Source of the DNA: Mariprofundus sp.
GTDB taxonomy: Bacteria; Pseudomonadota; Zetaproteobacteria; Mariprofundales; Mariprofundaceae
Reading direction: 5' to 3'
DNA: 24,000 nt
NCBI GenBank assembly: GCA_030951025.1
Contig: JAUZQK010000064.1
Coordinates: forward strand, 8 to 24,007
Positions within the stretch are counted from its first letter, which is position 1. Every line of letters starts with the position of its first letter. The position numbers and the translations under genes are program-made. The notes beneath the pieces were generated by a model. The model was not told the DNA's origin and made no database searches. It saw only the letters and a program-made list of their open reading frames with translations. Below are positions 5,720-22,092 of this stretch, one piece after another.

Positions 5720-5744
5720 CTTCGGATGTTGTCAGACATCGATA

Positions 5745-5821: not shown

Positions 5822-5881
5822 AGTAGCGGCGCGCAACGTAATCATTCACGATGCTAAAATCAACCTTTTATTAACCGGTTG

Positions 5882-5913: not shown

Positions 5914-5919
5914 TTTGTA

Positions 5920-5995: not shown

Positions 5996-6026
5996 GTAAC
6001 AAGGTTTGAATCTTGTTTTATTAGAA

Positions 6027-6040
6027 GCGGGTTTCCCCGC
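6027..6040 (-). terminator. Possible weak terminator or attenuator hairpin after hupB
   Basis: Minus strand: GCGGG-GAAA-CCCGC, 8 nt after the hupB stop, followed by TTCTAATAAAAC (poor U-tract). tRNA-Val lies directly downstream, so read-through is plausible. Confidence 0.35.
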
Positions 6041-6047
6041 CATCTAA

Positions 6048-6320
6048 TTATTTAACAGCGTCTTTCAGAGCCTTACCAGGCTTGAATTTAGGCGCTTTAG
6101 ATGCTGCAACCTGAATAGCTTCACCAGTCCGTGGGTTACGCGCGGTGCGTGCTGCGCGATCTGCTACTGAAAATGTACCAAACCCAACCAGGCTTACTGA
6201 ATCGCCATTAGCCAGAGTGCTAGTAATGCCACTGAGTACTGCTTCAACGGCATCTGCTGCTGATATTTTACTCAAACCAGCGTTCTCGGCTACATAGTTT
6301 ATCAAATCTGCTTTATTCAT
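6048..6320 (-). CDS. hupB: Nucleoid-associated DNA-binding protein HU (beta-type)
   Basis: 90-aa protein MNKADLINYVAENAGLSK...GFGTFSVADRAARTARNPRTGEAIQVAASKAPKFKPGKALKDAV, the canonical HU/IHF signature. GGAGG lies 6 nt upstream of the ATG at 6320. The track's longer start at 6338 is unlikely. The position downstream of lon matches classic synteny. Confidence 0.95.
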   Translation of the reverse strand: MNKADLINYVAENAGLSKISAADAVEAVLSGITSTLANGDSVSLVGFGTFSVADRAARTARNPRTGEAIQVAASKAPKFKPGKALKDAVK

Positions 6321-6403
6321 TTTTTCCTCCCGCCACATTCAATGGGTCGCGAACTATACGCAAAGAACCCTATGTCCTGTCAACTTATTTTTTTGTTATT
6401 TAT

Positions 6404-8875: not shown

Positions 8876-9043
8876 GCGTACTCCTCATCTTACTGTTGCA
8901 GGTATTGATCGTGTGAATTCAGCAGAACTTCAGCGCTAAGCCAATTGATTGCTAGTTTGTTGTTTCGTGTGGGTTCCAGCGTTACGTTGCAACGCTGGTT
9001 TTCACCCAGGCGATTGAAGCAGGATTGTTCAGTCAGTTACTGC

Positions 9044-10318
9044 TCAGGAGGCAGCTTCAATCTTGCTGTCTTCGCCATCGCCTTTCAAAAGCAGCAAGGG
9101 TTTGCCTTTATCTTCAACGGCATCGCGATTGACTACGCATTTTTCCACCCCGGTCATGGTTGGAATATCGTACATCACATCGAGCATCACCAATTCCATG
9201 ATGGCACGCAGACCACGCGCACCAGTTTTACGTTTGATGGCTTTTTCAGCAATTGCTTCCAAAGCACCGTCGGTAAAGGATAGTTCAACATGATCATAGG
9301 CCATGAGTGCGCCGTACTGTTTGGTTAAAGCGTTTTTTGGCTCTGTCAGGATGCGTAATAAAGATTCTTTATCCAGCAGGTTTAAGGTGGCAACAGCCGG
9401 CAAGCGACCAACCAGTTCAGGGATCAAACCAAATTTGATCAAGTCTTCCGGTTCAACCTGGCTTAAAATAACACCAATATCTTTTTCATCCTCACTCGAT
9501 ACTGCCGCCCCGAAACCGATAGAGCGTGCCTTACCCTTGGCCTCAATGAGTTTTTCCAAGCCGGCAAAAGCACCGCCGAGGATAAACAGAATATTGGTTG
9601 TATCGACTTGCATAAGCTCTTGTTGCGGGTGTTTGCGGCCACCTTGCGGAGGTACTGCAGCAACCGTACCTTCAATCAGCTTCAATAACGCTTGCTGCAC
9701 ACCTTCACCGGATACATCACGGGTGATTGATGGGCCTTCGGATTTGCGTGAGAGCTTATCGATTTCATCGATGTAAATGATACCGCGCTGAGCTTTTTCG
9801 ATATCACCATCAGCCGCCTGCAACAGTTTCAGGATAATGTTTTCAACATCTTCACCCACATAACCGGCTTCAGTCAGGGTGGTGGCATCAGCCATAACAA
9901 AGGGCACATCAAACACACGCGCCAGAGTTTGAGCCAATAGTGTTTTACCGCAGCCTGTAGGGCCTAGCAGCAACACATTGGATTTGGAGATTTCGACATC
10001 GTTCTTTTCATTGTGATCAATGCGCTTGTAGTGGTTGTACACCGCCACAGATAGCAGCCGTTTGGAGCTTTCCTGGCCAATGACATATTCATCCAGAAAA
10101 GCCTTGATTTCGGTCGGGCGTGGCAGGCCGGTTTCTTCTTTTGTTTCAGATTGATCGTTGCCGGATAGCTCTTCAACGATAATTTCATTGCATAGTTCAA
10201 TGCATTCGTCACAGATGAACACAGTCGGGCCTGCAATAAGTTTTTTGACATCGTGCTGTGATTTACCACAGAACGAGCAGAATAAAGTATTATCGCCGTT
10301 ACTATTCTGTGTCGTCAT
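9044..10318 (-). CDS. clpX: ATP-dependent Clp protease ATP-binding subunit ClpX
   Basis: Zinc-finger [30 protein letters not shown]. Walker [13 protein letters not shown]. Walker [13 protein letters not shown]-loop region RSIGFGA. I prefer the start at 10318 (MTTQNSNGD.., 424 aa) because GGAGG lies 5 nt upstream. This start overlaps the clpP 3' end by 17 nt. Confidence 0.97.
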
Positions 10319-10925
10319 CCGAACCTCCGGCAGCACCGATTTCCGCCCGGGAAGTCAGCACATCATCAACCAAACCGTAATCCTTGGCCTGTTGTGCGGT
10401 CAAGAAATAATCCCGCTCCACATCATCACACAGCTTTTCCAGCGGTTGACCGGTATGCTCAGCCATCATTTCATTCAGACGCTGTTTCAAGCTCAGGATT
10501 TCGCGTGCATGGATTTCAATATCAGTAGCCTGACCCTGAAAACCACCGAGTGGCTGATGAATCATGATGCGTGAATTGGGCAAGGAGAAGCGCTTGCCTT
10601 TAGCGCCTGCGGCCAATAAATGCGCCCCCATGCTGGCGGCCTGGCCGACACAGAGGGTAGAAACATCACAGCGGATATATTGCATGGTGTCGTAAATCGC
10701 CAAGCCTGCGGTAACCAATCCACCGGGGCTATTGATGTACAGATAAATATCTTTATCCGGCCCTTCGGACTCCAGAAACAACAATTGAGCGATCACGAGA
10801 TTGGAGATATGATCATCCACTGGGCCATTCAAAAAGATGATGCGCTCTTTCAGTAAACGGGAAAAGATATCGTAAGAACGCTCTCCCCGCGCAGTATGCT
10901 CAACAACAACCGGAACTAGACTCAT
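10302..10925 (-). CDS. clpP: ATP-dependent Clp protease proteolytic subunit ClpP
   Basis: Catalytic triad contexts GQAASMGA (Ser), IMIHQPLGG (His) and [11 protein letters not shown] (Asp). Short acidic C-terminal tail GGSDDDTE. Confidence 0.97.
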
Positions 10926-11027
10926 GTATTCTCCTTATCAATCATCATCGCTTTACGATGCAGCGCATGCCCGCTGGGCTTACGCAAAAATCATACCAGA
11001 ATGAATCCGGCTGTTATTCTATTCGAT

Positions 11028-12353
11028 CTATTGTTCTTGCTCAGCCTGCCAGTCGGATAATGATTTGCTGGCGGCTTTTGTTTTGGCCTGTTCAACAATG
11101 TAATTGATGCATTTGCGTTCCAGCAGAGCATCTTTCATGGATGCGATTTGTTCCGGCTGACTTAAAATCCATGTTTTAAACTGCTCACGCTGTTCTTCAG
11201 GATATTGCTGGGACTGACGATCAATTTCGCCATCGAGTTCCGCATCATCGACATGCATATCTGATAACTCACGCACTTGCTGCAACAAAATAGACAGCTT
11301 TAAACCACGCTCGGAACGGGTACGTATTTCCAACTTGAAGGCATCATCTTTAAGCATATCTTCCGGTGCTTCCATGCCTTGCTGCTGCATGTTGTTGAGT
11401 ACACGTTTGGTGGTTTCCTGCATGTCCTGCGCCACCAATGGCTCTGGTAGTTCCATCTCATTGGCTGCAATCAGGGCATCGAGAGCGGCTTCGCGTGTGC
11501 TTGTGAATGAAGCTTGTTCAGCTTCTTCATTCAAGCGGTTCTGTGTATCAGCCTTTAAGGCGGCGGCATCATCAAAGCCAACCATGCCAGCCAGTGCATC
11601 TGCATCTGCAGCGGTGATGGCTTTACCGACCGATTTGATATGCGTTGCAAACACAGCGGCCTTGCCAGCCAAATGTGCAGCCTGATAATCAGCCGGGAAA
11701 CTTACTTCCACAGTCGCATCCTCACCCGCTTTCTTACCAATCAACTGCTCTTCAAAACCCGGAATGAAACGCGCTTCACCGAGCACGAGTGGCACATCTT
11801 CGCCTTTACCACCTTCAAACTCTTCATCATCAATCGAACCAACAAAGTCAATATGTAGCTGGTCGCCATTTTCAGCTGCGCGTTCGGCTTCAACTTCATA
11901 TTTCACCTGCGACTTCATCAAGCGCTCAATTACTTGTTCGATATCGCTGTCTTCAACGCTGACGGTGGTTTCATCAAACTTCAGCGTGCTTAGATCAGCC
12001 AGTTTAACTTCCGGCCATACCGCGACTTTCATGGTGAACTCAAAGCCTTCGGTTGGTTGTACTGCCGGAATATCAATCATGGGCTGTACGGCAGGGTTCA
12101 AACCTGAGGATTCAATAGAAGCGACATAGTGTGTTTGAATCAATTCGGAAACGGTATCTTCATTCAATTTGGAGCCGAATTGTTTTTTGATGACATGGAC
12201 AGGTGTTTTACCTGGACGGAAACCCGGTAATTTGGCTTGCAATGTTAGCTTTTTAATCTGATCTGCATAAATGCGATCATATTCACCCTGGGCTACGGTG
12301 ACACGCACTTCATATTCATGGCTTGCAAGTTCTTTTACATCTGTCTTAATCAT
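11028..12353 (-). CDS. tig: Trigger factor (ribosome-associated peptidyl-prolyl isomerase chaperone)
   Basis: Ribosome-binding signature GFRPGKTPVHVIKKQFG. Central FKBP-like region (DFVGSIDDEEFEGGKGED..LGEARFIPGFEEQLIGKKAG). Positioned upstream of clpPX. The ATG at 12353 (MIKTDVK) has GGAGA 6 nt upstream and is preferred over the ATG at 12365. Confidence 0.95.
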   Translation of the reverse strand: MIKTDVKELASHEYEVRVTVAQGEYDRIYADQIKKLTLQAKLPGFRPGKTPVHVIKKQFGSKLNEDTVSELIQTHYVASIESSGLNPAVQPMIDIPAVQPTEGFEFTMKVAVWPEVKLADLSTLKFDETTVSVEDSDIEQVIERLMKSQVKYEVEAERAAENGDQLHIDFVGSIDDEEFEGGKGEDVPLVLGEARFIPGFEEQLIGKKAGEDATVEVSFPADYQAAHLAGKAAVFATHIKSVGKAITAADADALAGMVGFDDAAALKADTQNRLNEEAEQASFTSTREAALDALIAANEMELPEPLVAQDMQETTKRVLNNMQQQGMEAPEDMLKDDAFKLEIRTRSERGLKLSILLQQVRELSDMHVDDAELDGEIDRQSQQYPEEQREQFKTWILSQPEQIASMKDALLERKCINYIVEQAKTKAASKSLSDWQAEQEQ

Positions 12354-12415
12354 CGAATTCTCCATTCAGTAACATTAAAAACAGGATGCCCTGAAAACAG
12401 AACACCCTGTTGGTA

Positions 12416-12499
12416 TGGTACGAGAGGGGGGACTCGAACCCCCACACCATAGGTACTGGTACCTAAAACCAGCGCGTCTACCAATTCCGCCACCCTCGC
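12416..12499 (-). tRNA. tRNA-Leu (anticodon TAG)
   Basis: The 84-nt reverse complement GCGAGGGTGGCGGAATTGGTAGACGCGCTGGTTTTAGGTACCAGTACCTATGGTGTGGGGGTTCGAGTCCCCCCTCTCGTACCA. Anticodon arm CTGGT-TTTAGGT-ACCAG. Long variable arm typical of class II Leu tRNAs. The acceptor stem includes two G-U pairs. Encoded CCA. Confidence 0.93.
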
Positions 12500-12661
12500 A
12501 TATGTTTAAACAACGTTTCGAAGCTTTGAATAAAAAAAGGAGCAAAGCCAAAGCTTACCCCCTCTTTCCTTACCCTCATTCACTTACCCACTTCAAAACG
12601 GCTGCGAATCATGCCATCGGTCGAAGCGAAATCAAGAATTCACATTTGTAGAACGATGGGG

Positions 12662-12700
12662 AAACAAAAAAGAAGCATCATTATTGAAGGATAATTGCTT
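12662..12700 (-). terminator. Rho-independent terminator after the CBS-domain gene
   Basis: Minus strand: AAGCAATTAT-ccttca-ATAATgaTGCTT (imperfect stem with a 2-nt bulge, 12700-12673), followed by CTTTTTTGTTT. Confidence 0.55.
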
Positions 12701-12702
12701 GA

Positions 12703-13119
12703 TTATGTGCCAATATATTCCTGTAAGCGTGTAATCATGGCTTCTTTTTCATCCAGCATCAGGGCAACCATATCCCGAATGGACACGACACCAACAAAGT
12801 GATCTCCATCAAAAACAATCAAGTGGCGGCAATGGTTTGCTTTCATCAGAGCCAGACAATGCAATACACTTTCATCCGGTTTGACCTTCACCAGCGATTC
12901 ATCGGTGACCGTACCAACGCTGGTTAAGGCAGGATCGAGCCCTTTGCTAATCACCTGAATCATTAAATCGCGTTCGGTAAAAATGCCTTTCACACCGTAG
13001 GCTCCGGTGATCACGATGGAACCGATATAACGCTCGCTCATATACTTTACGGCTTCGAGTACAGAGGCGCTTTCATCGATGCTGGCTACATTGTGTTGGA
13101 TTTGCGAGGTGATTATCAT
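12703..13119 (-). CDS. Stand-alone CBS-pair (Bateman) domain protein
   Basis: 138 aa with two CBS-like repeats (..VLEAVKYMSERYIGSIVIT..GIFTERDL.. and ..VLHCLALMKANHCRHLIVFDGDHFVGVVSIRDM..). AGGAG lies 6 nt upstream of the ATG at 13119. The longer track start at 13203 adds a non-homologous-looking leader. Confidence 0.8.
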   Translation of the reverse strand: MIITSQIQHNVASIDESASVLEAVKYMSERYIGSIVITGAYGVKGIFTERDLMIQVISKGLDPALTSVGTVTDESLVKVKPDESVLHCLALMKANHCRHLIVFDGDHFVGVVSIRDMVALMLDEKEAMITRLQEYIGT

Positions 13120-13306
13120 AAAAACTCCTGCTTTAAATCGCTTGAACTGCATACATAGCTTGCAAGCATGATGATAGACTGCAATGCAATGAAGTACAAT
13201 CAAACGATAACGCGGTTACAGGAGAGTCTTATGAAACTGTTTTTTTACGCTGCGTGTGCGTGTGTGCGGGGGCTTAAAGTGTTTTCACAAACCGCCGCTG
13301 AGATGA

Positions 13307-13471
13307 TCAGTTTATAGCTTCAGCACCCTCTAATGCCCTGTCATTATCAGGTTCAGACTGATAAGGGACATCCATCAAAAAGGCAATATATGATAGTGAA
13401 ATATGCGGGTTCATTTGTGCATATTGCTGCATAATTTCTTTCATATCCAAGCCATTATCGCGTGCAAACAT
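13307..13471 (-). CDS. Small hypothetical protein (54 aa) downstream of the LexA-like repressor
   Basis: ORF with GGAGG 7 nt upstream of the ATG at 13471 (MFARDNGLDMKEIMQQYAQMNPHISLSYIAFLMDVPYQ..). No family recognised. Coding status rests on the SD sequence and ORF length only. Confidence 0.4.
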   Translation of the reverse strand: MFARDNGLDMKEIMQQYAQMNPHISLSYIAFLMDVPYQSEPDNDRALEGAEAIN

Positions 13472-13525
13472 GTGATCACCTCCGAGTTGATTGAGGGCTA
13501 GCATAAGTGTTTATGTGTTATTGGT

Positions 13526-13564
13526 ATGACATCGATATGACAACCAGATGACAGATGAATGTCG
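13526..13564. repeat. Helically phased direct repeats: ATGACA x3 plus a degenerate fourth copy, 11-bp period
   Basis: ATGACA at 13526-13531, 13537-13542 and 13548-13553. ATGTCG at 13559-13564. Spacing is exactly 11 bp. Located in the 77-nt intergenic region between the LexA-like stop (13582) and the small ORF. Confidence 0.5.
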
Positions 13565-13581
13565 CTGCCTTCGCGGATCAT

Positions 13582-14154
13582 TTAGAATTTTCGAAACTGG
13601 CCAACGACTTCGCCATAAATATCGAGTGATGTTTCGGGATAGATATTGGGATAATCTTCATTGGCAGGCTCTAAAAACGGGCCTTTTGAGCCGGTGCGCA
13701 GATACTTGATGGTAAAATCACCATCGACAATGGCCACGACAATTTTGCCGATATTGGGATTGATATTGCGCTCAACAATGAGGAAATCGCCACCATGAAT
13801 GCCGGCATGAATCATCGATTCGCCACGCACTTCAACCAATACCGTGCTGGATGGGTTTTCAACCAGATAGTCATCAATGGTGATGGCATCGCCGAGTGCT
13901 TCGGTGGCAGGGCTAGCAAAACCAGCCGGTGCAACGCCAACATGCGGGCGCGCAAAAAACATATTGGCTGGCGACAAACGACCACCCGGAGCCTTGCTGA
14001 TATAGCCGGCAAAAATCATGCGATCAATAAACTTCACCGCACCCTGTTTGCTGACACCTACCAGTGCGGCTATTTCTGCATAGGATGGAATTAAGCGATG
14101 CAGGGCATAATAATCTTGTAGTCGTCCGAGATAGAAAGGATCTTTATTCACCAT
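13582..14154 (-). CDS. LexA-family repressor (N-terminal winged-HTH, C-terminal S24 self-cleaving peptidase domain)
   Basis: 190 aa. The N-terminus resembles the LexA DNA-binding wHTH (IPSYAEIAALVGVSKQGAVKFIDRMIFAGYISK). Candidate Ala-Gly scissile bond in GVAPAGFASP (A77-G78). Ser nucleophile in VRGESM (S113). Lys in DFTIKYL (K150). It is not the canonical gammaproteobacterial LexA sequence, so it may be a second or accessory paralog. Confidence 0.85.
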   Translation of the reverse strand: MVNKDPFYLGRLQDYYALHRLIPSYAEIAALVGVSKQGAVKFIDRMIFAGYISKAPGGRLSPANMFFARPHVGVAPAGFASPATEALGDAITIDDYLVENPSSTVLVEVRGESMIHAGIHGGDFLIVERNINPNIGKIVVAIVDGDFTIKYLRTGSKGPFLEPANEDYPNIYPETSLDIYGEVVGQFRKF

Positions 14155-14166
14155 GCACGCAGTATG

Positions 14167-14182
14167 GTGTACGTTCGTACAC
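14167..14182. promoter_or_regulatory. Palindromic candidate operator GTGTACG-TT-CGTACAC upstream of the LexA-like gene
   Basis: Perfect 7-bp inverted arms with a 2-bp centre, 12 nt upstream of the ATG at 14154. It has a GTGT-N8-ACAC layout, one change per arm from the CTGT-N8-ACAG SOS box, and contains GTAC-N4-GTAC. No other copy was seen in the window. Confidence 0.5.
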
Positions 14183-14282
14183 TTCGCAAGGGTTGATCAT
14201 TCGTATGATTCATATCCATCCGCATCAATGCTATCAATCTGTGACATTAGGAATATTATAAAGATGAAAAACTACATATGCC

Positions 14283-14299
14283 GAAACGGGCACCGTTTC
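14283..14299 (-). terminator. Possible terminator hairpin after the six-gene operon
   Basis: GAAACGG-gca-CCGTTTC (7-bp stem) located 19 nt past the PhoD-like stop. On the minus strand a TTTTT run follows only after an 11-nt gap, so this is non-canonical. An alternative pairing with CGAACGGG (14309-14316 region) is possible. Confidence 0.3.
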
Positions 14300-14317
14300 C
14301 ATGAATACCCGTTCGCA

Positions 14318-16189
14318 CTAGCTCGGAATCAAATAGGTGAGTTCCTGCAACGCCCCATCAGCCAGAACCGATTTCAATTTCTGTTTGGTTGCGCGCCCCT
14401 CATCAAACCAGACCTGAGCGATATTATTCATACCCGTAATGGCCACATGCTTACCCTCAAGCGATTCCTGCGAAGCCAAAAAGTTATAGCCCTGCACAAG
14501 CTTGCTCTGATCGCCAATCGTGATGCCGGGGTTGGTGTTGTGCAGCGGGCTACTGGTGAGCTGAACTGCGGGAATGCGATTCCCCAGCATCGCCGTCCGT
14601 GCAAAGGAGTAATGCACATCGCCAGATAGAAACGTGACAAAATTCAGTTTGCTCTCCTCCGCCAGCATGGCTTCAAGAGAGCGGAAACCGGCCACCCATG
14701 ATTCTGCATCCAGCGCAGCTAATGAACCGGGGATGAGTTTCATCAGTGATAAAGCCGCGCCCTGCACACCTTCGACAAAGCGAAAGCCAAACACGGGGGT
14801 CGGCGAAATAAGGCAAATCGAATCACAATCCTTTACCGCCTGCTTTATCTCATCAGCCAATTCATCCAAGGCCTCGGCATGCATGAGTTTCGCAGGCTGT
14901 TGATGATAGAGTTTGCGACAAGTGCGCGTATCCATGGCGATCACAGCAGGCTGAGTTGGCGTGGAAAAAAACCATCTACCCGGTTTTGATGCCCAAAGCA
15001 GAGCATCGTACTGTTCCGCATCATCGCCATCATGGCGATGGGCATTTAAATGCTTCTCCAGCAGTTCAATGAAACCTTCGCTAAAGCGCTCAGGGTCATT
15101 CCCCCAAGCCTGAAAAGCCCAATACGATGCCAATGCATTGGCGACAATTCTGCGCGTACGCGGGCTTTTGCCTTGCACTTGCTCAACCCAATCACGGGAA
15201 ATATTCCAGTCATCAGTAACTTCGTGATCGTCACACTGCATATATACCGAAACATTAGCCAATAGTCGGCGCACTTCGGGCAGCGTTTGCGCAAAAGCCT
15301 CCAGATTTTTTTTCTCTTCCCGATAATACCTTTTTGAAATACGATGATTGAACTGGTGTTTGACTGCCTGCCAGTCCTGAAATTCAGGCTTTGCCCCCTG
15401 ACCTCCAAACGCACACAAATACATTGCCGCGTACTCACCAAATGTCATCAGGTGGTTATCCGTCGCCCCCGACGAAAAACCTTCATGCTTACCATTCAGG
15501 TTCCAACTCACCTCTGGAGCCCGGTGATACAGCTCTACGTCGCACACCTTATGTGCATCATTTGCCGTGTGATATCCCCCATCCATCGGCAGCCGCCGAC
15601 GCGGCATGGTCTCATCCCATCCTGTCACGTCTCTGCCGAGCCCTATGAGATGCCAAAGCATGGCTCCACCAACATCATCGGCATAAATCTGATCGCCGGT
15701 CATCAACAGCATGGAAGGGCGATTGACTGAATCATCAATCGTATCACCTACAACCTTGGATCCTGTTGCCAGTTGATCTCGCGAGCCCCAATCACGATGC
15801 ACGGCTGCGGCATGCGGTTTACGGCAAGAGCCATGCAATATATTTTTCAGCTCTCCCGGCACGATAAAGCTGGGATACGATTCGCCCGGATAACAAAAAT
15901 CATCATTACCATGCAACAGGCTGTTAGCATTTTCAATGAGATCGTAGTGCAGAATATTTTCTGCATAGGATGCATCCTGCCAGTCCAGCCAGATGATATG
16001 CACAAACAGGTGTTCGCCCATGCGCGCCGTACGCTGTGTGGATTGAACATTCAAACCATGCAGCGACCCGTCTGCCTTACGCTTAAACACCGCCCCGGAA
16101 AAGTCTCGGGGTTCTGTTGTTGCCACCCATATTGCCACCTTTTGTAGCTCAGTACGCCGCACAATCGGCCCTGCCAGAAAGTCACTCAT
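14318..16189 (-). CDS. PhoD-like metallophosphatase / phosphodiesterase, no Tat or Sec signal (predicted cytoplasmic)
   Basis: 623 aa from the ATG at 16189. PhoD_N-like start GPIVRRTELQKVAIWVAT. Metallophosphatase motifs LHGSCRKPH, LLMTGDQIYADDV, CDDHEVTDDWN and LSGDVHYSF. The ATG overlaps the upstream KAP gene's stop by 8 nt (ATGAGTGA, 16182-16189). Confidence 0.8.
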   Translation of the reverse strand: MSDFLAGPIVRRTELQKVAIWVATTEPRDFSGAVFKRKADGSLHGLNVQSTQRTARMGEHLFVHIIWLDWQDASYAENILHYDLIENANSLLHGNDDFCYPGESYPSFIVPGELKNILHGSCRKPHAAAVHRDWGSRDQLATGSKVVGDTIDDSVNRPSMLLMTGDQIYADDVGGAMLWHLIGLGRDVTGWDETMPRRRLPMDGGYHTANDAHKVCDVELYHRAPEVSWNLNGKHEGFSSGATDNHLMTFGEYAAMYLCAFGGQGAKPEFQDWQAVKHQFNHRISKRYYREEKKNLEAFAQTLPEVRRLLANVSVYMQCDDHEVTDDWNISRDWVEQVQGKSPRTRRIVANALASYWAFQAWGNDPERFSEGFIELLEKHLNAHRHDGDDAEQYDALLWASKPGRWFFSTPTQPAVIAMDTRTCRKLYHQQPAKLMHAEALDELADEIKQAVKDCDSICLISPTPVFGFRFVEGVQGAALSLMKLIPGSLAALDAESWVAGFRSLEAMLAEESKLNFVTFLSGDVHYSFARTAMLGNRIPAVQLTSSPLHNTNPGITIGDQSKLVQGYNFLASQESLEGKHVAITGMNNIAQVWFDEGRATKQKLKSVLADGALQELTYLIPS

Positions 16190-18578
16190 ATCTCCCCCCC
16201 TTCCATTTTCCACCATTGACCATCACAGCAATTGCTTTAGCTGTAAGTGGTGAAATGACATCCCCATTCTTCAGCTTGCATCCAGCCGTTATTTTCTTTA
16301 ATGATTCATGGCCAATTAAAGCATGCAGATAATCGGGTAACTGATGCACGCCCGACTCTTTCTCAGTCGCGGCAGCTGCGGCAAATACCTGAACCTGGTC
16401 AGGAAAGCGCGCAAGATATTCCGCCACTCGGGGAAATCGAACTTCAAGGATAGTCCAGAGCGCCACTTGATCCAGAAAAGCCTCATCCATATCGAGAACG
16501 CCGCTTACCCTTGCTAAATTCACATACACGCCAAACGCATTCACTATCAACTTCATACTTCTCGGGTTGGCATCCATCAAATCAACAAAGCGTGTGAGCC
16601 GGTGCCGGTTTGCAGTCGCAAAGCTTTCAGTCTTCGCCGCTTTAATCACTGCGGCAGCAATCATAGCCTGTTTATGAATAACAGTTTTCGGCTCACTGCG
16701 CATATAGTCATTGAGTTCAGATTCACTGGATACATTTTGAATCTCTTTTTCTACAACGGCATAAGCCTCATCAAAACTTACTACAGAATCACTTTTCTCT
16801 CTCGATGTGATTTCATCCATAAACGACACTTTCAATTCAGCCGAGATCGGCGGCAATGCAACACTTAATTGAAACAACTTCTCCAGAAAGCGATAACCCG
16901 TTGGCTGTTCAACCTGCGCAATTTTACCGTTGAATGTTTCATAGCCCTCCTCAAAGCAGGCCGATATCCAGGTTCGATCAGCCGCGACCAGGAAAAATAC
17001 TTTTGGATGAGAATACAGTGTGTGAAGACTCTCCAATAATTCAATGACATAAGAGCTTTTGCATCGATCCAGATCATCAATAAACACGATGACAGGCCTG
17101 TCAAACCCATCAACCATTTTTCTGTAATAGGAACGAATCTTTTCCATCGGATCGGAAGACAAACGTCTAAACATGTGAGCTGAAGCAGCAAAGCCTGGCA
17201 TGAGTTTGCTCAACAAAACCGCAACGGTACTTGCTAAAGCAAGAATCGATGCAATCGACTTCATGACATCTCCGCCCAACGTTAATGCTAATCCAAGCAG
17301 CACCAGAATTGTTGCCAACATTATAAAAACAGGTCGCCTATCCCCTTCCTCAATTCGATACCAGTAATTTTTCCAGTGCAATTCTTTACTGTTTGGTGCG
17401 CCTTTTATGCCCTCTTGAACAATCCGATCCAACAACCCCCACCAGGGCGGGTCGACATGTTGGTTCCTCCATGCATTAAAATGGATACCAATCCATGGCC
17501 GTTGCACTTTGCTCTCATCATGCAGGCATTGATCCAACTGATGCATAAATGTTGTTTTACCTGCTCCCCAGCGTCCACAAAGGTGCAGAACAAAACTATC
17601 TCCTTTGATACTTTGCCCAGCCTCAACAGGTAAATTTAGAGATTCATGCCACAGACGATCCAACCAGCGTGCTAAATATTCCGCGAATGCAAATCTGTTA
17701 AATGAATCATGTTCAGAAGGTTGATCGGAACTAATAATAGTTGCATTCGACAGCAGTTCTGAAGGAGCAACCCGCGTGCCTCCCCCATCAATAAGCTTGT
17801 TAAGCTTCTCTGCAACTTGTTCTGGAACTTTGAATACTGTGCCCTGAGGGCTGCGAAGAAACTGAAATTCATCCTTCTGAATGGACTCAATCACCACATC
17901 TCTGGATATTATTGGCTCCAACCATTTTACCGGCAAGGAAAGACGAACATCCTTCTTGGGCGTTTCTGACTCCTCTCCTTTGTCTGTAAATTCGAGATGG
18001 CTAATCTCCCCCCAAGCGACCATACCGCTTGCAGCTCGGTTGTGCTTACGCTCATCTTCATCCTTGAAGGCTCGCCAAAGAAAAAACACATCGCCAAGCT
18101 GCATCTCGTCCTGAAACCGGTTTATACGCCAAGGCACTGCCTCCCCCTGTTTCGCCGATTCCAGCCAGTCCGTTTTTTCATCATCCGGCTTATACTGAAA
18201 TAACCAATAACGCTTCACATGCTTTTCAGTCGTTCCATCATTGAATTCGGGCGATAGCTCTGGAGCTGTCCTATCATTTCTCTTCTTTTTCTTCGATGTT
18301 TTATCTTTCCTGATGCTCTGAATATCAGAGCCTTGTGGCTGAAACTTCTGATGCGATTCAGTTTCAAAACGCATCAACATAGCCTGCGTATCCGGCCCCA
18401 CAATACCATCAGCAGACAAACCATTCTTAGCCTGGAACTCACCCACAACATGACCGGTACGCTTACCAAACACACCATCCGGCTCACCCGCATCGAAGCC
18501 TTGCTGGCGAAGTAATTCCTGCAAGGCTTTCACCTGATCACCCTCTGACCCTTCGCGCAATACCCGTTCACTTTCCAT
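16182..18578 (-). CDS. Multidomain KAP-family P-loop NTPase: N-terminal PG_binding_1-like domain, EVE/PUA-like domain, KAP NTPase with an inserted TM hairpin
   Basis: 798 aa. PGB-like domain at aa 5-71 (EGDQVKALQELLRQQGFDAGEPDGVFGKRTGHVVGEFQAKNGLSADGIVGPDT). EVE-like domain at aa ~122-262 (RYWLFQYKPDD..W..RF..MQLGDVFFLW..GMVAWGEI..FLRSPQGTVFKVPEQ). Walker A GRWGAGKTT (nt 17550-17576). IHFNAWRNQ. Two hydrophobic helices at aa ~415-460 (nt ~17199-17336) lie between Walker A and Walker B. Walker B VIVFIDDLDRC (nt 17061-17093). A TM insertion in the P-loop domain plus a DDLDRC-type Walker B is the KAP hallmark. Confidence 0.85.
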   Translation of the reverse strand: MESERVLREGSEGDQVKALQELLRQQGFDAGEPDGVFGKRTGHVVGEFQAKNGLSADGIVGPDTQAMLMRFETESHQKFQPQGSDIQSIRKDKTSKKKKRNDRTAPELSPEFNDGTTEKHVKRYWLFQYKPDDEKTDWLESAKQGEAVPWRINRFQDEMQLGDVFFLWRAFKDEDERKHNRAASGMVAWGEISHLEFTDKGEESETPKKDVRLSLPVKWLEPIISRDVVIESIQKDEFQFLRSPQGTVFKVPEQVAEKLNKLIDGGGTRVAPSELLSNATIISSDQPSEHDSFNRFAFAEYLARWLDRLWHESLNLPVEAGQSIKGDSFVLHLCGRWGAGKTTFMHQLDQCLHDESKVQRPWIGIHFNAWRNQHVDPPWWGLLDRIVQEGIKGAPNSKELHWKNYWYRIEEGDRRPVFIMLATILVLLGLALTLGGDVMKSIASILALASTVAVLLSKLMPGFAASAHMFRRLSSDPMEKIRSYYRKMVDGFDRPVIVFIDDLDRCKSSYVIELLESLHTLYSHPKVFFLVAADRTWISACFEEGYETFNGKIAQVEQPTGYRFLEKLFQLSVALPPISAELKVSFMDEITSREKSDSVVSFDEAYAVVEKEIQNVSSESELNDYMRSEPKTVIHKQAMIAAAVIKAAKTESFATANRHRLTRFVDLMDANPRSMKLIVNAFGVYVNLARVSGVLDMDEAFLDQVALWTILEVRFPRVAEYLARFPDQVQVFAAAAATEKESGVHQLPDYLHALIGHESLKKITAGCKLKNGDVISPLTAKAIAVMVNGGKWKGGRYE

Positions 18579-18614
18579 CAGTCATTCCACCATAGTTCAA
18601 CATCACACATCGGG

Positions 18615-19502
18615 TTACAAGCTGAGCAACATGTCGATGAGATCAGCTTGCGGAAACAAATCGAATTTATCCTTTCTAATATTGCCATGCGTCCACATGC
18701 CTTTGATTTTACCGTTGTATGCCTGTGCGTTATATTCAAAGGCTTGAGCACCCTTTTGTTTAATTGCAGCAACCAGGCCAGCGCGCACATCAATCGAGTC
18801 ACGCTCGGCAATCCATAAAATAAATGCCTTGAGCGTTTCAATTTGTTTATCTGAATAAGCATGCCACTGGCGATGTCCCCGAAATGGCTTGGCCAAGGTC
18901 ACGATTTGATCGGCGACAATAGGTGTTCCCACATAGGTTTTCCCACCCTTGGCATAACTGAAATTACAGACCTCAATCGCCGCTGAATGTGTATGCATGT
19001 GCTGCGAGCCGTTTTTACCCAGATGCCAGCCGTAACCGCCTTCCGGCACACATTGCAGCAACTCACCATCATAACGATCATCATTGCCTTTAACGGAACG
19101 GCCACCGAGCACAAACTCCGTTGCAATTGTACCGCGATTATCCTTCGCCCAACCATCCACAGTATGATACGGATTATGCCAGCCAGCAGTATGATGCAAA
19201 AACAAATATGCCTTGGCTGTCGGCCCTGCCAGATATTCGCCTTTGGGCAGAAAGTATTTATGCACCAGTAGGTCTTCTGTGGCCGCATACACTCTCTCAG
19301 AATTATCCGTTGTGGCATGATTCTCTCGAATAGCCGCAAGCGTTTGTGAGCCAACGATCCCATCAACCATCAAACCATGCTCCTTCTGGTAGGCTTCGAC
19401 TGCCTGCTTGGTTCCTGCTCCAAACACCCCGTCATCTGCAATGCCTAAGGCCTGTTGCAACTCAATCACCTCTCGCCCTCTTGAGCCCTGTCTTAATAAC
19501 AT
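18615..19502 (-). CDS. N-acetylmuramoyl-L-alanine amidase (Amidase_2 / T7-lysozyme-PGRP fold) with an N-terminal PG_binding_1 domain; endolysin-like, no signal peptide
   Basis: 295 aa from the ATG at 19502, which has AGGAGG 8 nt upstream. The track start at 19589 is a GTG without an SD. PGB: LLRQGSRGREVIELQQALGIADDGVFGAGTKQAVEAYQKEHGLMVDGIVGSQT. Amidase_2 motifs FLHHTAG (Zn His), HSAAIEVCN and WTHGNIRKDKFDLFP (C-terminal His/Asp-Lys motif). Confidence 0.85.
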   Translation of the reverse strand: MLLRQGSRGREVIELQQALGIADDGVFGAGTKQAVEAYQKEHGLMVDGIVGSQTLAAIRENHATTDNSERVYAATEDLLVHKYFLPKGEYLAGPTAKAYLFLHHTAGWHNPYHTVDGWAKDNRGTIATEFVLGGRSVKGNDDRYDGELLQCVPEGGYGWHLGKNGSQHMHTHSAAIEVCNFSYAKGGKTYVGTPIVADQIVTLAKPFRGHRQWHAYSDKQIETLKAFILWIAERDSIDVRAGLVAAIKQKGAQAFEYNAQAYNGKIKGMWTHGNIRKDKFDLFPQADLIDMLLSL

Positions 19503-19618
19503 CGCAATCACCTCCTGAAGTGTTAAATTTACTTCTTCTATCTTGCCTGAAAGAACATCAACCAAAATCAGTCTAGCGCACCACTTCACGCATTCGATAA
19601 AGTATTAATAAATCCTCA

Positions 19619-21274
19619 TCACGTGGCCTCTAGCGATAACATGCGACGCTCCTGTTTTTCAAACCCGATGATGATCGGCGCCCATTGTTTGATGCTTTTG
19701 TATAAGCGCAACAAAGCCATGAGCAGTGCTGGCCAGCCCGTAAATATGCTTTTTTTGATCAAATCGATAACCAGCTTGAGCAGCGATGCTAAAAAACCGC
19801 ATGAGACGGCAAACATGGAAGATTTATTCTCCAGGTAAGCGGCTATCTTGCTGACATCATTTGCCTGTGCGAACTCATATACCAGCGTTGTAAAGTCGAA
19901 ATCATTATCCCTATGCATCCGCAATACAGGAATGTTTGAATTAATATTGAGGCCGCGCATAGGAAACTTAATTTCTTTTCTAGCAAAAAAAGCCAGTGAT
20001 CCTGTCACTCCCGAAACAACCGCCTGAAGTGCTTCAAATGAATTACGAATATAAAGATAAGCGACTCGAGACAGGTTTTTAAGCATTGCCTTGACCGAAG
20101 ATACCGCCTTTTTAAGCATGGTCTTAAACCAAGCCCACGCCCGTTTAATACCATCCCACATCCGTGCGCCAATGGAATAGATATTATCCCACATTTCCTG
20201 CACAACAGATTTCATGTTTTTCTTTGGACTCCTGCTTTTAGCCAGTTTTTTTATTTCCTGATAAACGTCTTCTGACTCGGTTGGCATCACCACGTCAGCG
20301 GCTATAAGGCGCTGTGAAATACTGGAAAAAAACTTAGGGTACGTTAATTTGATCAGCCCCATCGCTTTTGATTTCGCCTTATCAGACGTGGTTCCAAGGC
20401 TTGTCCAATACACGAGCAACTGCTTATAAAGCTGGCTCTTCGCCTTTAAATCCAAGCCATTTGCTCGCATGCTATTGGCACTTCCCCCCGTATATCCTTT
20501 AGGACGAATATTATAACCAAGCAACCACAGCTCGATCTTGGCCATAGCGACAATAAATGGTTTGATTGTTTTTTTATGCTCAACACCTTTAGGGATTTGG
20601 CCTGATGCAAGCCTGGCTACCATTTCATCCTGATCAAAAAGTAGCTTCAGCGTTGCCAGACTCACAACACTTAAACCCGCAGCGTCCGCCCACCCCAACA
20701 CCTGAGCAAGCTTAGAAAAGCCCGCTAATGCGTCATTTAGCAAATCAATCAGCAAATCAATCGTGACCATGGTTTTTAAGTGGCCGGGGGCTCGAGAGAC
20801 CAAACCCAACGCATAAAGTCTCAGGTATGCTGCTCGTATCAAGGCATCACATGGCTCACCCTTAACAAACCATTTCTCCAAATTTGATGCTTCCTCAAAA
20901 CTCACCATTTGCTGCAACGCCAGCCAGGTTTTTTCGCCCACCCAGCCATCAGCCTTGAGACTACTGATACCAAAGGCATCATGTTGAAACAGCTTCACAC
21001 CAGCCTGATAACTTGCATCAAGCTGTGAAGGTACGGAATCAGTATCAAGGTAACCCAATAAAAAAAGCCTATTGGCAATCACTTTTAAGCGGGAATTTGA
21101 ATATGCAGAACGCGATCCACCAGGATTCGATTCGGGTAACGGCGTAATAATTTGATCATCACCAGCTTGAAGCATGGCCTGCTCTAACAAACCATATTGT
21201 TTAACCATATCTCCCTCATCCGGCAAACCACTCAAGCAAGCAGGAGAAATAGTTAAATCGACACGTTGGGGCAT
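19619..21274 (-). CDS. Hypothetical 551-aa protein with PGB-like helical repeat(s) and a hydrophobic or amphipathic C-terminus
   Basis: aa 64-122 (VIANRLFLLGYLDTD..YQAGVKLFQHDAFGISSLKADGWVGEKTWLALQQ) resembles PG_binding_1. Weaker LxxLGY-type repeats occur at aa ~145-195 and ~245-295. The C-terminal aa ~484-537 is hydrophobic (MFAVSCGFLASLLKLVIDLI, FTGWPALLMALLRLY, WAPIIIGF). The start ATG shares one base with the upstream stop (TAATG, 21272-21276). Confidence 0.6.
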   Translation of the reverse strand: MPQRVDLTISPACLSGLPDEGDMVKQYGLLEQAMLQAGDDQIITPLPESNPGGSRSAYSNSRLKVIANRLFLLGYLDTDSVPSQLDASYQAGVKLFQHDAFGISSLKADGWVGEKTWLALQQMVSFEEASNLEKWFVKGEPCDALIRAAYLRLYALGLVSRAPGHLKTMVTIDLLIDLLNDALAGFSKLAQVLGWADAAGLSVVSLATLKLLFDQDEMVARLASGQIPKGVEHKKTIKPFIVAMAKIELWLLGYNIRPKGYTGGSANSMRANGLDLKAKSQLYKQLLVYWTSLGTTSDKAKSKAMGLIKLTYPKFFSSISQRLIAADVVMPTESEDVYQEIKKLAKSRSPKKNMKSVVQEMWDNIYSIGARMWDGIKRAWAWFKTMLKKAVSSVKAMLKNLSRVAYLYIRNSFEALQAVVSGVTGSLAFFARKEIKFPMRGLNINSNIPVLRMHRDNDFDFTTLVYEFAQANDVSKIAAYLENKSSMFAVSCGFLASLLKLVIDLIKKSIFTGWPALLMALLRLYKSIKQWAPIIIGFEKQERRMLSLEAT

Positions 21275-21654
21275 TATTTATTTGAGCTAAGCCCAACCAT
21301 ACCGCCAAACAACGCCAGCAACCCATGTCTGGTATCAATGCCCGCCTTCACCGATGCGGCATGCACTTTCTGAATGTGTTCTTGAAAATCACCCTCAGGC
21401 ACCAGGTTAATCGCATCGCCATCACACATCATCTTGGTCACTGCACATAGCTTCAGGTTATTGCCCGTCGCTTTTGCAGCTGCCAGCAGATCTGTAATAC
21501 TTTTAAGTTTCCCATCATCACCCAACGCCGTATCAACGGCCACATCGATTGAACCGGTATAGGTTTGCACCTCAAGTGAAGACATATCTTCCAAAAAGTC
21601 ACCAATTGATTCCAACCCTCTGGTCAGCTTTCCTTTTGTATCAGGCATATCCAT
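21274..21654 (-). CDS. Hypothetical protein (126 aa, or 124 aa from the ATG at 21648)
   Basis: ORF with AGGAG immediately upstream. Spacing favours the second ATG at 21648. Its stop overlaps the next gene's start. Acidic and soluble-looking. No family recognised. Confidence 0.55.
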   Translation of the reverse strand: MDMPDTKGKLTRGLESIGDFLEDMSSLEVQTYTGSIDVAVDTALGDDGKLKSITDLLAAAKATGNNLKLCAVTKMMCDGDAINLVPEGDFQEHIQKVHAASVKAGIDTRHGLLALFGGMVGLSSNK

Positions 21655-21669
21655 CTCCTATTGTCGTGG

Positions 21670-22014
21670 TCACTTCATTTGATTTCGAAAAGCGGCCACA
21701 TCTTTTGCGAAATCACTACAATACACAGCAATACTCTGATTAAACTGTTCAATACCATCAGAATTATTGGCTATTTCATGTTTTAAACGTTTGCCATCTG
21801 CAACCCGCAAAACATCAGAGGCAAGCAACCTTAAATTCCGAGATAACTCAGCATATTTTAGATATTCATCGTAACTGGCTGGCTGCTTGATTCCCTTGCT
21901 TCGCCCCACGAAATCGCCAACGAAGGTACGCACCACGACCTGTTGTGTATGACCTCGTCGTAGCCATCGCTTCATTTTCGCCAATATATTCTGGAATCTA
22001 TTCATCGTAGACAT
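21670..22014 (-). CDS. Hypothetical protein (114 aa), first gene of the operon
   Basis: ORF with a purine-rich GAGAGAGGGG upstream of GTG-ATG. ATG at 22014 taken as the start. Basic N-terminus (KMKRWLRRGH). No family recognised. Only 15 nt separate it from the next ORF. Confidence 0.5.
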   Translation of the reverse strand: MSTMNRFQNILAKMKRWLRRGHTQQVVVRTFVGDFVGRSKGIKQPASYDEYLKYAELSRNLRLLASDVLRVADGKRLKHEIANNSDGIEQFNQSIAVYCSDFAKDVAAFRNQMK

Positions 22015-22066
22015 CACCCAGCCCCTCTCTCAAAGCTCAATGCTGCACATAGATATTAAAATGTAT

Positions 22067-22084
22067 GTCCCATAAATATGGGAC
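22067..22084. promoter_or_regulatory. Perfect palindrome GTCCCATA-AA-TATGGGAC between the uup stop and the operon start (operator and/or uup terminator stem)
   Basis: 8-bp inverted arms with a 2-bp centre, 9 nt after the uup stop (22093) and about 50 nt upstream of the first operon start codon. On the minus strand it is followed by ATACATTTTAATATC. Confidence 0.4.
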
Positions 22085-22092
22085 AAAGATGC

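Follow-up and report, generated by a model that had tools for sequence, protein, structure and literature searches.

A six-gene block between uup and thiI in Mariprofundus is a lineage-specific mosaic of three separable units

Six genes between uup and thiI raise the question of whether they form a single defence system, as a sequence-only reading had proposed. The window (the whole 24,000-nucleotide stretch analysed here) holds them at 14318-22017, all on the minus strand and in one direction. The first is orfA (21670-22014; 114 aa counted from its ATG, or 115 aa from an alternative GTG one codon further upstream). After a 15-nt gap comes orfB (21274-21654; 126 aa), which meets orf551 (19619-21274), a gene with an N-terminal PG_binding_1-like (PGB) domain, in an ATGA-type overlap. 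A gap of 116 nt (19503-19618) separates orf551 from a PGB-Amidase_2 gene (18615-19502; 295 aa), whose ATG is preceded by AGGAGG and whose start is extended to a GTG at 19589 in the ORF list. The gene for a PGB-EVE-KAP NTPase (16182-18578; 798 aa) follows 36 nt further on, and its stop overlaps the start of a PhoD-like metallophosphoesterase gene (14318-16189; 623 aa) at ATGAGTGA. Rechecking coordinates and gaps on the sequence bore out the six co-directional ORFs and the spacing first described, and the genes are probably transcribed together. As we describe below, the block is a lineage-specific mosaic of three separable units in Mariprofundus-type Zetaproteobacteria and not one conserved defence system.

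Directly 3' of the uup stop codon, the minus strand carries a hairpin (TGTCCCAT-ATTT-ATGGGACA, 22066-22085) of 8 bp; at -11.5 kcal/mol (z = -4.2) it is more stable than each of 200 shuffles. This hairpin probably terminates uup and bounds the block on its 5' side. The tail hairpin (about 14278-14318, minus strand) begins at the PhoD stop codon and extends downstream. Its stability of -16.6 kcal/mol is only weakly better than chance (z = -1.9; 7 of 200 shuffles fold equally well). The transcription unit probably ends at this hairpin. The palindrome and the hairpin first said to bound the block are both present.

The sequence-only reading proposed that the six genes could be an integrated defence, with the KAP protein as the sensor and the amidase and the PhoD-like protein as effectors. 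The operon-like spacing favours this model, as does a KAP-PhoD overlap or 3-4 nt spacing that is kept in every copy with KAP. KAP NTPases are validated defence proteins, and the claim that no named system is matched held: PADLOC and NCBIfam match the KAP domain alone, and just partially. Gene neighbourhoods, however, argue against a single unit, since co-occurrence largely fails for PhoD, for orfB+orf551 and for KAP, and the full combination is limited to one genus-level lineage. In every group outside the Mariprofundus lineage, orfB+orf551 is accompanied by neither KAP nor PhoD. The KAP family is tiny (about 8 homologues, confined to one lineage), and its nearest non-syntenic member (L003) is a solitary gene. 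The PhoD-like family is huge and widespread (620-700 aa); in 80 genome loci sampled from other phyla, KAP, orf551 and amidase were never among the neighbours, and no neighbour family recurred across the 80. At the uup-thiI locus itself, PhoD is found without KAP in L092 and L101. These distributions make the proposed PhoD effector unlikely, and the gene is most likely a co-transcribed passenger, a common stand-alone gene. It may nevertheless have a role, since its translational coupling to KAP is kept in all zetaproteobacterial copies. We consider the integrated six-gene model improbable.

The block occupies a variable spot. Compared with their M. ferrooxydans counterparts, the uup, thiI and PhoD proteins show 91%, 94% and 91% amino-acid identity; orfA shows 46%, orf551 59% and KAP 77%, and the left half of the locus evolves much faster than its flanks. 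Gene content varies as well. The syntenic loci of M. ferrooxydans hold three extra genes in the slot (Tle1-like, OMP-like and 92 aa), L004 and L101 have a PGB-muramidase instead of the amidase, and L092 consists of uup-muramidase-PhoD only. In L101, KAP has been deleted down to a 65-codon remnant, and the 38 residues of it that can be aligned match the KAP protein of L004 at 92% identity; orf551, muramidase and PhoD are intact, so that their retention is independent of KAP. The 116-nt gap (minus strand), which is the exchangeable enzyme slot, still holds a frameshifted piece of the 92-aa gene, from its 3' end; the local alignment to L002 8950-9050 scores 109. Because this gene closes the Tle1-like/OMP/92-aa cassette in M. 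ferrooxydans, the gap is a deletion scar of the Tle1 cassette. The variable locus and the fast-evolving left half fit with a conflict role, and to this extent the original conflict or defence reading survives; its one coherent system does not. A defence island was not recognisable around the locus: housekeeping genes lie on both sides, and neither an integrase nor a further defence gene was found.

Searches of Pfam, NCBIfam, PHROGs and PADLOC gave no family match for orfA or orfB. Homologues of orfA were confined to zetaproteobacterial versions of the locus. OrfB is a rare stand-alone family (99 clusters at 50% identity among 1.84 billion representatives) and the obligate upstream partner of orf551. 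The orf551 search yielded 25 homologues and recovered 50 metagenome loci; in about 44 loci orf551 is preceded by orfB, and the pair recurs across 46 non-redundant locus groups. OrfB+orf551 is the conserved core, an uncharacterised pair. The AF2 model of orfB (pLDDT 85) consists of a helix, a three-stranded sheet and a long helix, and its fold had no PDB match. Orf551 comprises the PGB-like domain (about aa 60-125), an all-helical body and a marginally hydrophobic C-terminal helix (aa 488-506); a fold search with its predicted structure (pLDDT 76) gave no match, and no signal peptide was predicted. As a single sequence its PGB domain scored 17 bits, under the cutoff of 23, and the family profile matches the PGB domain of 4lpq (E = 6.5e-5). 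Residues ~290-445 weakly resemble tape measures (several PHROG families, E = 4.5e-5 to 8e-3; monocin FtbJ, E = 0.004).

Such a series could be a decayed prophage or tailocin remnant made up of two chaperone-like small genes, a tape-measure-like gene and an endolysin. The gene order is reminiscent of chaperones, tape measure and lysin, and the PHROG matches are to tape-measure and endolysin families. However, neither 2.9 million viral contigs nor 50,697 phage genomes contained a relative of orf551, no phage or viral homologue of orfB was found, the pair is intact across phyla with other phage genes absent nearby, and the GC content of the block is not distinct from that of its flanks. We regard a remnant as highly improbable. 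A prophage lysis cassette was also considered and was ruled out, a viral or phage homologue of orf551 not having been found.

The enzyme beside orfB+orf551 is exchangeable: Amidase_2, pesticin-like muramidase, CHAP, and Tle1-like and patatin lipases all occur there. A PG hydrolase or PGB protein adjoins the pair in about 10 of the 46 groups and a lipase in four or five; many loci (L094, L095, L146) have no enzyme neighbour at all, which indicates that the pair has its own function. Adjacent sheath and tube genes, present in 3 of the 46 groups, point to a different function, delivery or release. A tail-sheath gene directly follows orf551 in the same direction in L097, L098/L118 and L115 (the L097 and L098 contigs end inside this gene); L115 and L118 continue with a T4 gp19-like tube gene and then an AAA fragment or a baseplate-like gene. 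The first reading had missed the conserved core, the exchangeable slot and the linkage to contractile injection systems (CIS) in some relatives.

Could the block, then, be an effector island for a CIS encoded elsewhere? OrfB+orf551 would be an adaptor or chaperone with a tape-measure-like carrier, or an anchoring or release accessory; amidase, muramidase, CHAP, Tle1 and patatin would be antibacterial or envelope-targeting cargo, and KAP and PhoD unrelated neighbours. Besides the three groups with a sheath gene directly 3' of orf551 and the weak tape-measure likeness, the enzyme types are classic T6SS and CIS effector classes. In M. ferrooxydans an OMP-like protein with a signal peptide comes after the Tle1-like lipase, in a position like that of an immunity gene. 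There are precedents both for a CIS effector related to tape measures and for a CIS cluster that includes a PG-binding protein (PMC11126660). On the other hand, sheath, tube and baseplate genes are absent from the window and, in most long loci, from the ≤10 kb around the pair. The tape-measure similarity has no fold-search support, the amidase and muramidase have no immunity gene, and the PGB fusion on KAP argues that KAP is more than a bystander. We judge this explanation rather unlikely.

The amidase of the block contains PG_binding_1 (49 bits) and Amidase_2 (35.8 bits; cutoff 26) domains, and no signal peptide was predicted. It has the motifs HHT and THGNIRKDKFD, which we take, from the Amidase_2 family, to be putative Zn ligands. 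This family includes AmpD, a cytoplasmic enzyme, and the protein might serve housekeeping wall turnover or recycling, acting AmpD-like on cytoplasmic muropeptides, with PGB domains that bind muropeptides and with PhoD and KAP as accessory metabolic or regulatory proteins. Apart from AmpD, this would suit the fixed position between housekeeping genes, the vertical inheritance across Mariprofundus, and the fact that all proteins but KAP are without signal peptides or transmembrane segments. Relatives, however, replace the amidase with lysozyme-type muramidase or CHAP, enzymes requiring polymeric wall, and the slot is also taken by lipases. The families are very rare, and fast divergence and gene loss are atypical for housekeeping genes. 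We find a housekeeping role quite improbable.

The KAP protein carries, on the minus strand throughout, a PGB domain (PG_binding_1, 62.3 bits; aa 13-68, 18375-18542), an EVE-like domain (aa 123-259, 17802-18212) and KAP_NTPase (102.5 bits). Its KAP signature is complete, with a transmembrane hairpin (aa 417-460, 17199-17330) placed between Walker A (GRWGAGKTT, aa 335-343, 17550-17576) and Walker B (VFIDDLDR, aa 498-505, 17064-17087); K341, named earlier as the Walker A residue, was confirmed. The EVE call is marginal (23.6 bits versus a cutoff of 23.0), and the best matches in a PDB profile search were 2g2x (E = 0.09) and 2eve (E = 0.4), the EVE founders. All of the earlier domain calls hold, those of EVE, PhoD and the orf551 PGB weakly. 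The KAP PGB is 43% identical to that of the amidase (E = 9e-11), and 5 of 7 KAP homologues carry the fusion; this kinship suggests functional integration with the neighbouring genes. We found no description of the PGB-EVE-KAP architecture in the literature. The part assigned to KAP NTPases in antiphage defence was well placed, as KAP NTPase fusions are now experimentally antiphage (PMC13552941).

Of the three units, one is orfA-orfB-orf551 with the PGB-tagged, signal-less wall hydrolase; in some bacteria orfB+orf551 heads a contractile-injection-system operon. The second is the PGB-EVE-KAP transmembrane P-loop NTPase, of a class shown experimentally to block phages, and the third the PhoD-like phosphoesterase, most likely a passenger. 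Tentatively, we infer that the block serves in conflict and that a KAP switch may give signal-less hydrolases access to the wall; we consider this possible rather than probable. KAP would be a membrane-embedded sensor and switch whose EVE-like domain might read modified invader nucleic acid, and whose cytoplasmic PGB might bind muropeptides or PGB-bearing neighbours. NTP hydrolysis would then cause the transmembrane hairpin to compromise the inner membrane, the cytoplasmic PGB-amidase and orf551 would gain access to the sacculus, and the infected cell would be killed or lysed ahead of phage release. What the data show is the anatomy of the genes, their domains, the modularity, the exchangeable slot and the losses; that the locus acts in conflict, that KAP senses an invader and that it is coupled to the hydrolase is what we infer. 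The tiny one-lineage KAP family, the marginal EVE call and the absence of a recognisable defence island count against this reading.

How does the locus compare with known systems? Like KAP antiphage proteins (EF_KAP and relatives, PMC13552941; PifA; QatA), its KAP protein has KAP_NTPase with Walker A and Walker B, transmembrane helices inside the NTPase domain and fused extra domains of a variable kind, and a single-gene homologue exists (L003). Unlike them, it has an N-terminal PGB plus EVE-like architecture, which is not described in the KAP literature examined, and is embedded among PGB-tagged hydrolases. The partial KAP-domain matches in PADLOC and NCBIfam were to PDC-S20, PifA and QatA. 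Those to PifA and PDC-S20 cover part of the profiles only; QatA gave 60 bits against an equivalog cutoff of 600, and QatBCD partners are absent. No Tmn model in either collection gave a match. Tmn is a related transmembrane NTPase whose action at the membrane leads to cell collapse (PMC13001434), a mechanistic analogy. It is a YobI-family, not a KAP, protein, and it lacks PGB and EVE domains as well as neighbouring hydrolases.

The PhoD-like protein shares with PhoD, the Tat-secreted phosphodiesterase of Bacillus subtilis, a Pfam PhoD match above cutoff (30.9 bits versus 27, spanning just 86 residues) and conserved Cys/Asp/Tyr- and His/Asp-containing metallophosphoesterase motifs. GDQIYADD, DDH[DE]VTDDWN and SGDVHY are invariant in 15 relatives, and we assume that the conserved motifs map to the PhoD metal ligands. 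It differs in having no Tat (or Sec) signal, a predicted cytoplasmic location, a sequence too diverged to match any PDB entry and a family without conserved neighbours. Phage endolysins and lysis cassettes likewise combine PGB with an exchangeable catalytic domain (amidase, muramidase, CHAP), and signal-less hydrolases, as in such cassettes, need a membrane lesion to reach the wall. Unlike them, the locus has no holin, spanin or other phage genes, orf551 and orfB lack viral homologues, and the locus lies in the chromosome and is passed on vertically. T6SS and eCIS effector islands differ in that the window has no VgrG, PAAR, Hcp, sheath or known adaptor family, its hydrolases have no immunity genes, and orfB and orf551 match no known adaptor by family or fold. 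The resemblance to such islands, in which an adaptor goes with Tle, Tae or Tge effectors, and to Tme, a CIS effector related to tape measures (PMC11126660), lies in a conserved small and large pair beside interchangeable lipase and PG-hydrolase genes, a pair that adjoins sheath and tube in three groups and whose larger member is weakly tape-measure-like.

The block comprises six minus-strand genes, namely orfA (21670-22014; 114 aa), orfB (21274-21654; 126 aa), orf551 (19619-21274; 551 aa), an amidase gene with AGGAGG ahead of its ATG (18615-19502; 295 aa), a KAP NTPase gene (16182-18578; 798 aa) and a PhoD-like gene (14318-16189; 623 aa). From head to tail, the genes are joined by a 15-nt gap, an ATGA-type overlap, gaps of 116 and 36 nt and an ATGAGTGA overlap. 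A strong hairpin (22066-22085, z = -4.2) lies directly past the uup stop, and a weaker one (about 14278-14318, z = -1.9) past the PhoD stop. The ORF coordinates and the hairpin folding thus bear out the layout, spacing and flanking hairpins described in the sequence-only reading, and the block is a probable operon. The domain calls of that reading were upheld by Pfam, with an EVE domain in KAP just over the cutoff and the peptidoglycan-binding domain (PGB) of orf551 below threshold as a single sequence; a family profile recovered the latter (4lpq, E = 6.5e-5). OrfA and OrfB matched no family in Pfam, NCBIfam, PHROGs or PADLOC, and a hydropathy scan revealed no signal peptide or clear membrane segment in the five non-KAP proteins. 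An Rfam scan returned three tRNAs only and no RNA element within the block. A 158-aa plus-strand ORF (14153-14629), antisense to the 3' end of the PhoD-like gene, is presumed to be a spurious shadow ORF.

The flanks of the block are housekeeping genes, with uup upstream. Downstream, about 9 kb between PhoD and thiI (5424-14317) encodes a LexA/UmuD-like S24 protein, a CBS protein, a tRNA, tig-clpP-clpX-lon, hupB and two more tRNAs; beyond thiI lie genes for an alpha/beta hydrolase and a PAS histidine kinase. The order uup-block-thiI-hydrolase-kinase is common to the window and two Mariprofundus ferrooxydans assemblies. Amino acid identity to M. ferrooxydans is 91% for uup and 94% for thiI in the flanks; within the block it is 46% for orfA, 71-75% for orfB, 59% for orf551, 88% for the amidase, 77% for KAP and 91% for PhoD. 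Gene order and flank identities show that the window derives from a zetaproteobacterium closely related to M. ferrooxydans. Identity across the block is very uneven: the left half has either evolved at a far higher rate than its surroundings or been replaced by divergent alleles.

The stretch between orf542 and the amidase gene is longer by three genes in M. ferrooxydans. The first encodes a Tle1-like lipase (PF09994, E = 3e-76), the second an OMP-like protein that has a signal peptide, and the third a membrane protein of 92 aa. The OMP-like protein ends in ...GSEF and is followed by the 92-aa protein with its hydrophobic C-terminus (6004-6969 in one assembly, L001; 7701-8600 and 8711-8989 in the other, L002). 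Both genes are positioned after the lipase gene as expected of a lipase immunity pair, and neither has a family match. In the window, the 116-nt gap (19503-19618) carries a frameshifted remnant that aligns with the terminal codons of the 92-aa gene, and a GTG-extended amidase ORF runs through it. Since the gap retains this remnant, we conclude that the cassette was deleted in the window lineage.

A more distant metagenomic relative (L004) has orfA-orfB-orf551, a gene for a PGB-pesticin/lysozyme-like muramidase, KAP, PhoD and thiI. Another relative (L101) has the same layout with KAP cut to a 65-codon remnant (1475-1672) between an intact muramidase gene and PhoD; the 38 alignable residues of the remnant are 92% identical to the KAP protein of L004. 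This locus is a natural KAP deletion and provides the main argument that the neighbours can do without KAP. A third relative (L092) retains uup, muramidase, PhoD and thiI only. Because the relatives differ in gene content in this way, the uup-thiI intergenic site is a hotspot of gene gain, swap and loss. In M. ferrooxydans, L004 and L101, PhoD and thiI are direct neighbours. The interval filled in the window thus holds no genes in these relatives, and a rearrangement breakpoint coincides exactly with the block's 3' end. The 190-aa S24 peptidase directly downstream of the block (13582-14154, minus strand) is not found at this position in M. ferrooxydans; it lacks an umuC partner and narrowly misses the cutoffs for both UmuD (105.5 versus 110) and LexA (70 versus 111).

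The PhoD-like protein scored 30.9 bits against PF09423 (cutoff 27), and its invariant residues are C122, D166, Y169, D171-172, D320-H322, N329, D524 and H526. Its profile gave no match in the PDB. Bacillus subtilis PhoD carries a Tat/Sec export signal, whereas the block's protein has no hydrophobic N-terminal segment (maximum 19-residue Kyte-Doolittle average, 1.34) and is predicted to be cytoplasmic. The PhoD-like search gave 2195 matches, and a genome scan confirmed 556 relatives spanning Pseudomonas, Vibrio, Bacillales, Actinomycetota and Nitrososphaeria. None of the 80 loci that we fetched had KAP, orf551, orfA, orfB or the amidase as a neighbour, and no neighbour family recurred among them. 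On the strength of these neighbourhoods, we rejected the role of a system-specific effector proposed earlier for PhoD. Other Mariprofundaceae carry the gene alone at other positions. The best account of PhoD is that of a resident gene with the island lying against it.

The second proposed effector, the amidase, contains PG_binding_1 (49 bits) and Amidase_2 (35.8 bits) in Pfam and also matches PHROG endolysin families. It shares with endolysins the architecture of a PGB joined to a catalytic peptidoglycan hydrolase domain; what differs from a phage lysis cassette is the context, as there is no phage gene in the window. A prophage lysis cassette was rejected, since orf551 has no homologue in viral contigs or phage genomes.

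We then asked which genes of the block recur elsewhere. The orf551 search yielded 25 homologues, and metagenomes supplied 50 loci; orf551 has an orfB homologue directly upstream in about 44 loci. Among 1.84 billion representative proteins, the OrfB family makes up 99 clusters (50% identity), with all members about 110-125 aa long. The pair is found without its block partners in a Maricaulis-like alphaproteobacterium (L146/147) and in other phyla. This recurrence without the others indicates that the conserved unit is orfB+orf551, not six genes. The pair is unannotated, its members being labelled "hypothetical" or "peptidoglycan-binding protein" in the sources. M. ferrooxydans has a second, paralogous pair (L095, 9663-11602), 43% identical, which adjoins a Na/Pi cotransporter gene and is without hydrolase, KAP or PhoD. 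About 3 kb from the Maricaulis-like orfB+orf578, on the opposite strand, lie HEPN_Swt1 and DUF5343 genes (L146, 2006-3266; L147, 1868-3101), which may be a defence or toxin pair.

An AF2 model of Orf551 (mean pLDDT 76) is all-helical and confident in the N-terminal 330 residues and in a C-terminal helical hairpin; Foldseek found nothing significant for it in the PDB or BFVD. Residues of about 290-445 gave repeated weak tape-measure matches to several PHROG families (E = 4.5e-5 to 8e-3) and matched the monocin protein FtbJ (E = 0.004), a likeness that we take as a hint only. OrfB was modelled well (pLDDT 85) as a helix, a three-stranded sheet and a long helix. YbaB was its best PDB match, and was rejected as not meaningful (E = 0.43, TM 0.28-0.35); an OrfB profile search of the PDB also gave nothing meaningful.

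The immediate co-directional neighbours of the pair were tabulated among 46 non-redundant groups. Wall hydrolases or PGB proteins are represented by PGB-Amidase_2 (window and L001/2), a PGB-pesticin-like muramidase (downstream in L004, L101 and L127; upstream in L137/143 and L141/142/145), PGB-CHAP (L114), Amidase_3 plus a pesticin-like protein (L115) and, with a PGB, a 617-aa protein (L140). Further neighbours are a Tle1-like lipase (L001/2, L138), patatin (L093/113, L103), an alpha/beta hydrolase (L132), an M28 or M20 peptidase (L119, L136) and an OmpA/TPR protein (L120). Apparent KAP neighbours in L114 and L140 were PGB cross-matches to the PGB-CHAP and 617-aa proteins, respectively, and were discarded. 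A fixed pair with an interchangeable envelope-degrading enzyme looks like the pattern of effector or lysis modules. Other neighbours seem unrelated (Fe-S proteins, NAD-epimerases, DUF6765, a giant helicase and a Na/Pi transporter). In one clade (L108, 5382-15020; L110; L117), a radical-SAM/Fe-S protein and DUF6765 are encoded upstream of the pair and a fused DEAD/ResIII + UvrD helicase of 1730-1747 aa downstream, a different sort of defence-like neighbour.

In three groups (L097, L098/L118 and L115), a phage-type tail-sheath gene directly follows orf551, and in L115 and L118 the sheath is followed by a T4 gp19-like tube and then by an AAA fragment or a baseplate-like gene. These contractile-tail genes occupy 636-4859 in L115, 1139-3933 in L118, 1739-2805 in L097 and 1969-2568 in L098. 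The sheath and tube genes are those of a contractile injection system (CIS), and their adjacency to orf551 homologues is very unlikely to be due to chance. The L115 tail cluster is closed by the Amidase_3 and pesticin-like hydrolase genes and seems too short for a full injection system. The adjacency speaks for the chief rival to wiring of the block's genes with KAP, namely that orfB+orf551 and the enzymes belong to CIS biology and that KAP is an unrelated defence gene. The window itself contains no sheath, tube, spike or known adaptor gene, and the main argument for wiring of KAP to its neighbours is the PGB fused to KAP.

KAP matched PF07693 with 102.5 bits (cutoff 20) over residues 326-688, and both its Walker A motif (GRWGAGKTT, 335-343) and its Walker B motif (VFIDDLDR, 498-505) are invariant in seven KAP homologues. 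A transmembrane hairpin between the Walker motifs is the hallmark of the KAP family, and the hydropathy scan located one such hairpin, formed by hydrophobic helices 417-435 and 438-460. Because the Walker motifs flank this hairpin, the NTPase domain must lie in the cytoplasm, as must the whole part of the protein that precedes it, the PGB included. The PGB, a PG_binding_1 domain in Pfam, is 43% identical to that of the amidase (E = 9e-11), and the fusion is present in five of the seven homologues; the KAP protein of L004 is without it. A cytoplasmic PGB can only have wall precursors, recycled muropeptides or a partner protein as its possible ligands. The EVE match (PF01878) passed marginally (23.6 bits versus a cutoff of 23.0, profile positions 1-142 of 145), and the homologue P0004 has an EVE match in precomputed annotation. 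A profile of the region found the EVE proteins 2g2x and 2eve as its best PDB matches, weakly (E = 0.09 and 0.4) and with coverage limited to the N-terminal 47 residues.

Full-length KAP homologues are rare (about 8 among 5.8 billion proteins), and phage genomes gave just short local matches in two phages. One homologue, 47% identical, is a solitary EVE-KAP gene (L003). The farthest relative found (31% identity; L007-L009) is paired with a patatin-like phospholipase (8569-12280 in L007), an echo of the lipase and KAP theme in another lineage.

The sequence-only reading had proposed one integrated six-gene unit. The genes do not co-occur across unrelated genomes: the full set is confined to the Mariprofundus lineage, and PhoD, KAP and orfB+orf551 are each found elsewhere without the others. 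Restricted to one lineage, the block is a mosaic that separates into three units, orfA-orfB-orf551 with a hydrolase, PGB-EVE-KAP, and PhoD. It also offers a caution, as tight operon spacing and an attractive domain mix can result when a hotspot with a resident gene (here PhoD) gains and loses DNA by repeated insertion and deletion.

What we say of function is inferred from genomic data. In the main reading, KAP would act as sensor and switch, and its action at the membrane could open the way to the wall for the PGB hydrolase, which has no signal peptide, and possibly for Orf551; the outcome would be abortive lysis. In a further reading, which we consider unlikely, orfB+orf551 would be the core of an unrecognised envelope-attack module for the presentation or release of signal-less wall hydrolases and lipases that can replace one another. 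This module could be wired to a CIS or, here, to PGB-EVE-KAP, giving phage-triggered self-lysis (abortive infection) that senses both modified nucleic acid and cell-wall fragments. If KAP is functionally wired to its neighbours, the locus would encode a defence NTPase with a cytoplasmic wall-binding domain coupled to lytic effectors, and the newly validated KAP defence class would gain a new trigger and output logic. Whatever the role of KAP, the unannotated but conserved orfB+orf551, with its exchangeable envelope-hydrolase slot and occasional CIS link, can be tested as a candidate for a new function in effector handling or lysis.

KAP NTPases fused to variable regions give phage resistance that requires Walker B (PMC13552941), and Tmn, a related transmembrane NTPase, is described as working at the membrane (PMC13001434). 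Neither an EVE-KAP nor a PGB-KAP protein is described in the literature that we searched, and a search for a KAP+EVE or KAP+peptidoglycan defence system returned nothing relevant; a 2020 survey of EVE makes no mention of KAP, P-loop, transmembrane or peptidoglycan. That the earlier reading recognised no named system in the six-gene combination agrees with PADLOC and NCBIfam, which gave partial KAP-domain matches only. KAP scored 60.4 bits against the QatA model of the QatABCD system (NF041923), far below the cutoff of 600, and no gene near it matches any Qat model. The PADLOC matches to PDC-S20 (profile positions 6-234 of 464, E = 1e-23) and PifA (37-272 of 720, E = 5e-18) were likewise partial, and Tmn was not matched by KAP in PADLOC. 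We take the locus to be a variant of a KAP-based conflict locus with an uncharacterised module inside, and it is this module that could prove the more novel.
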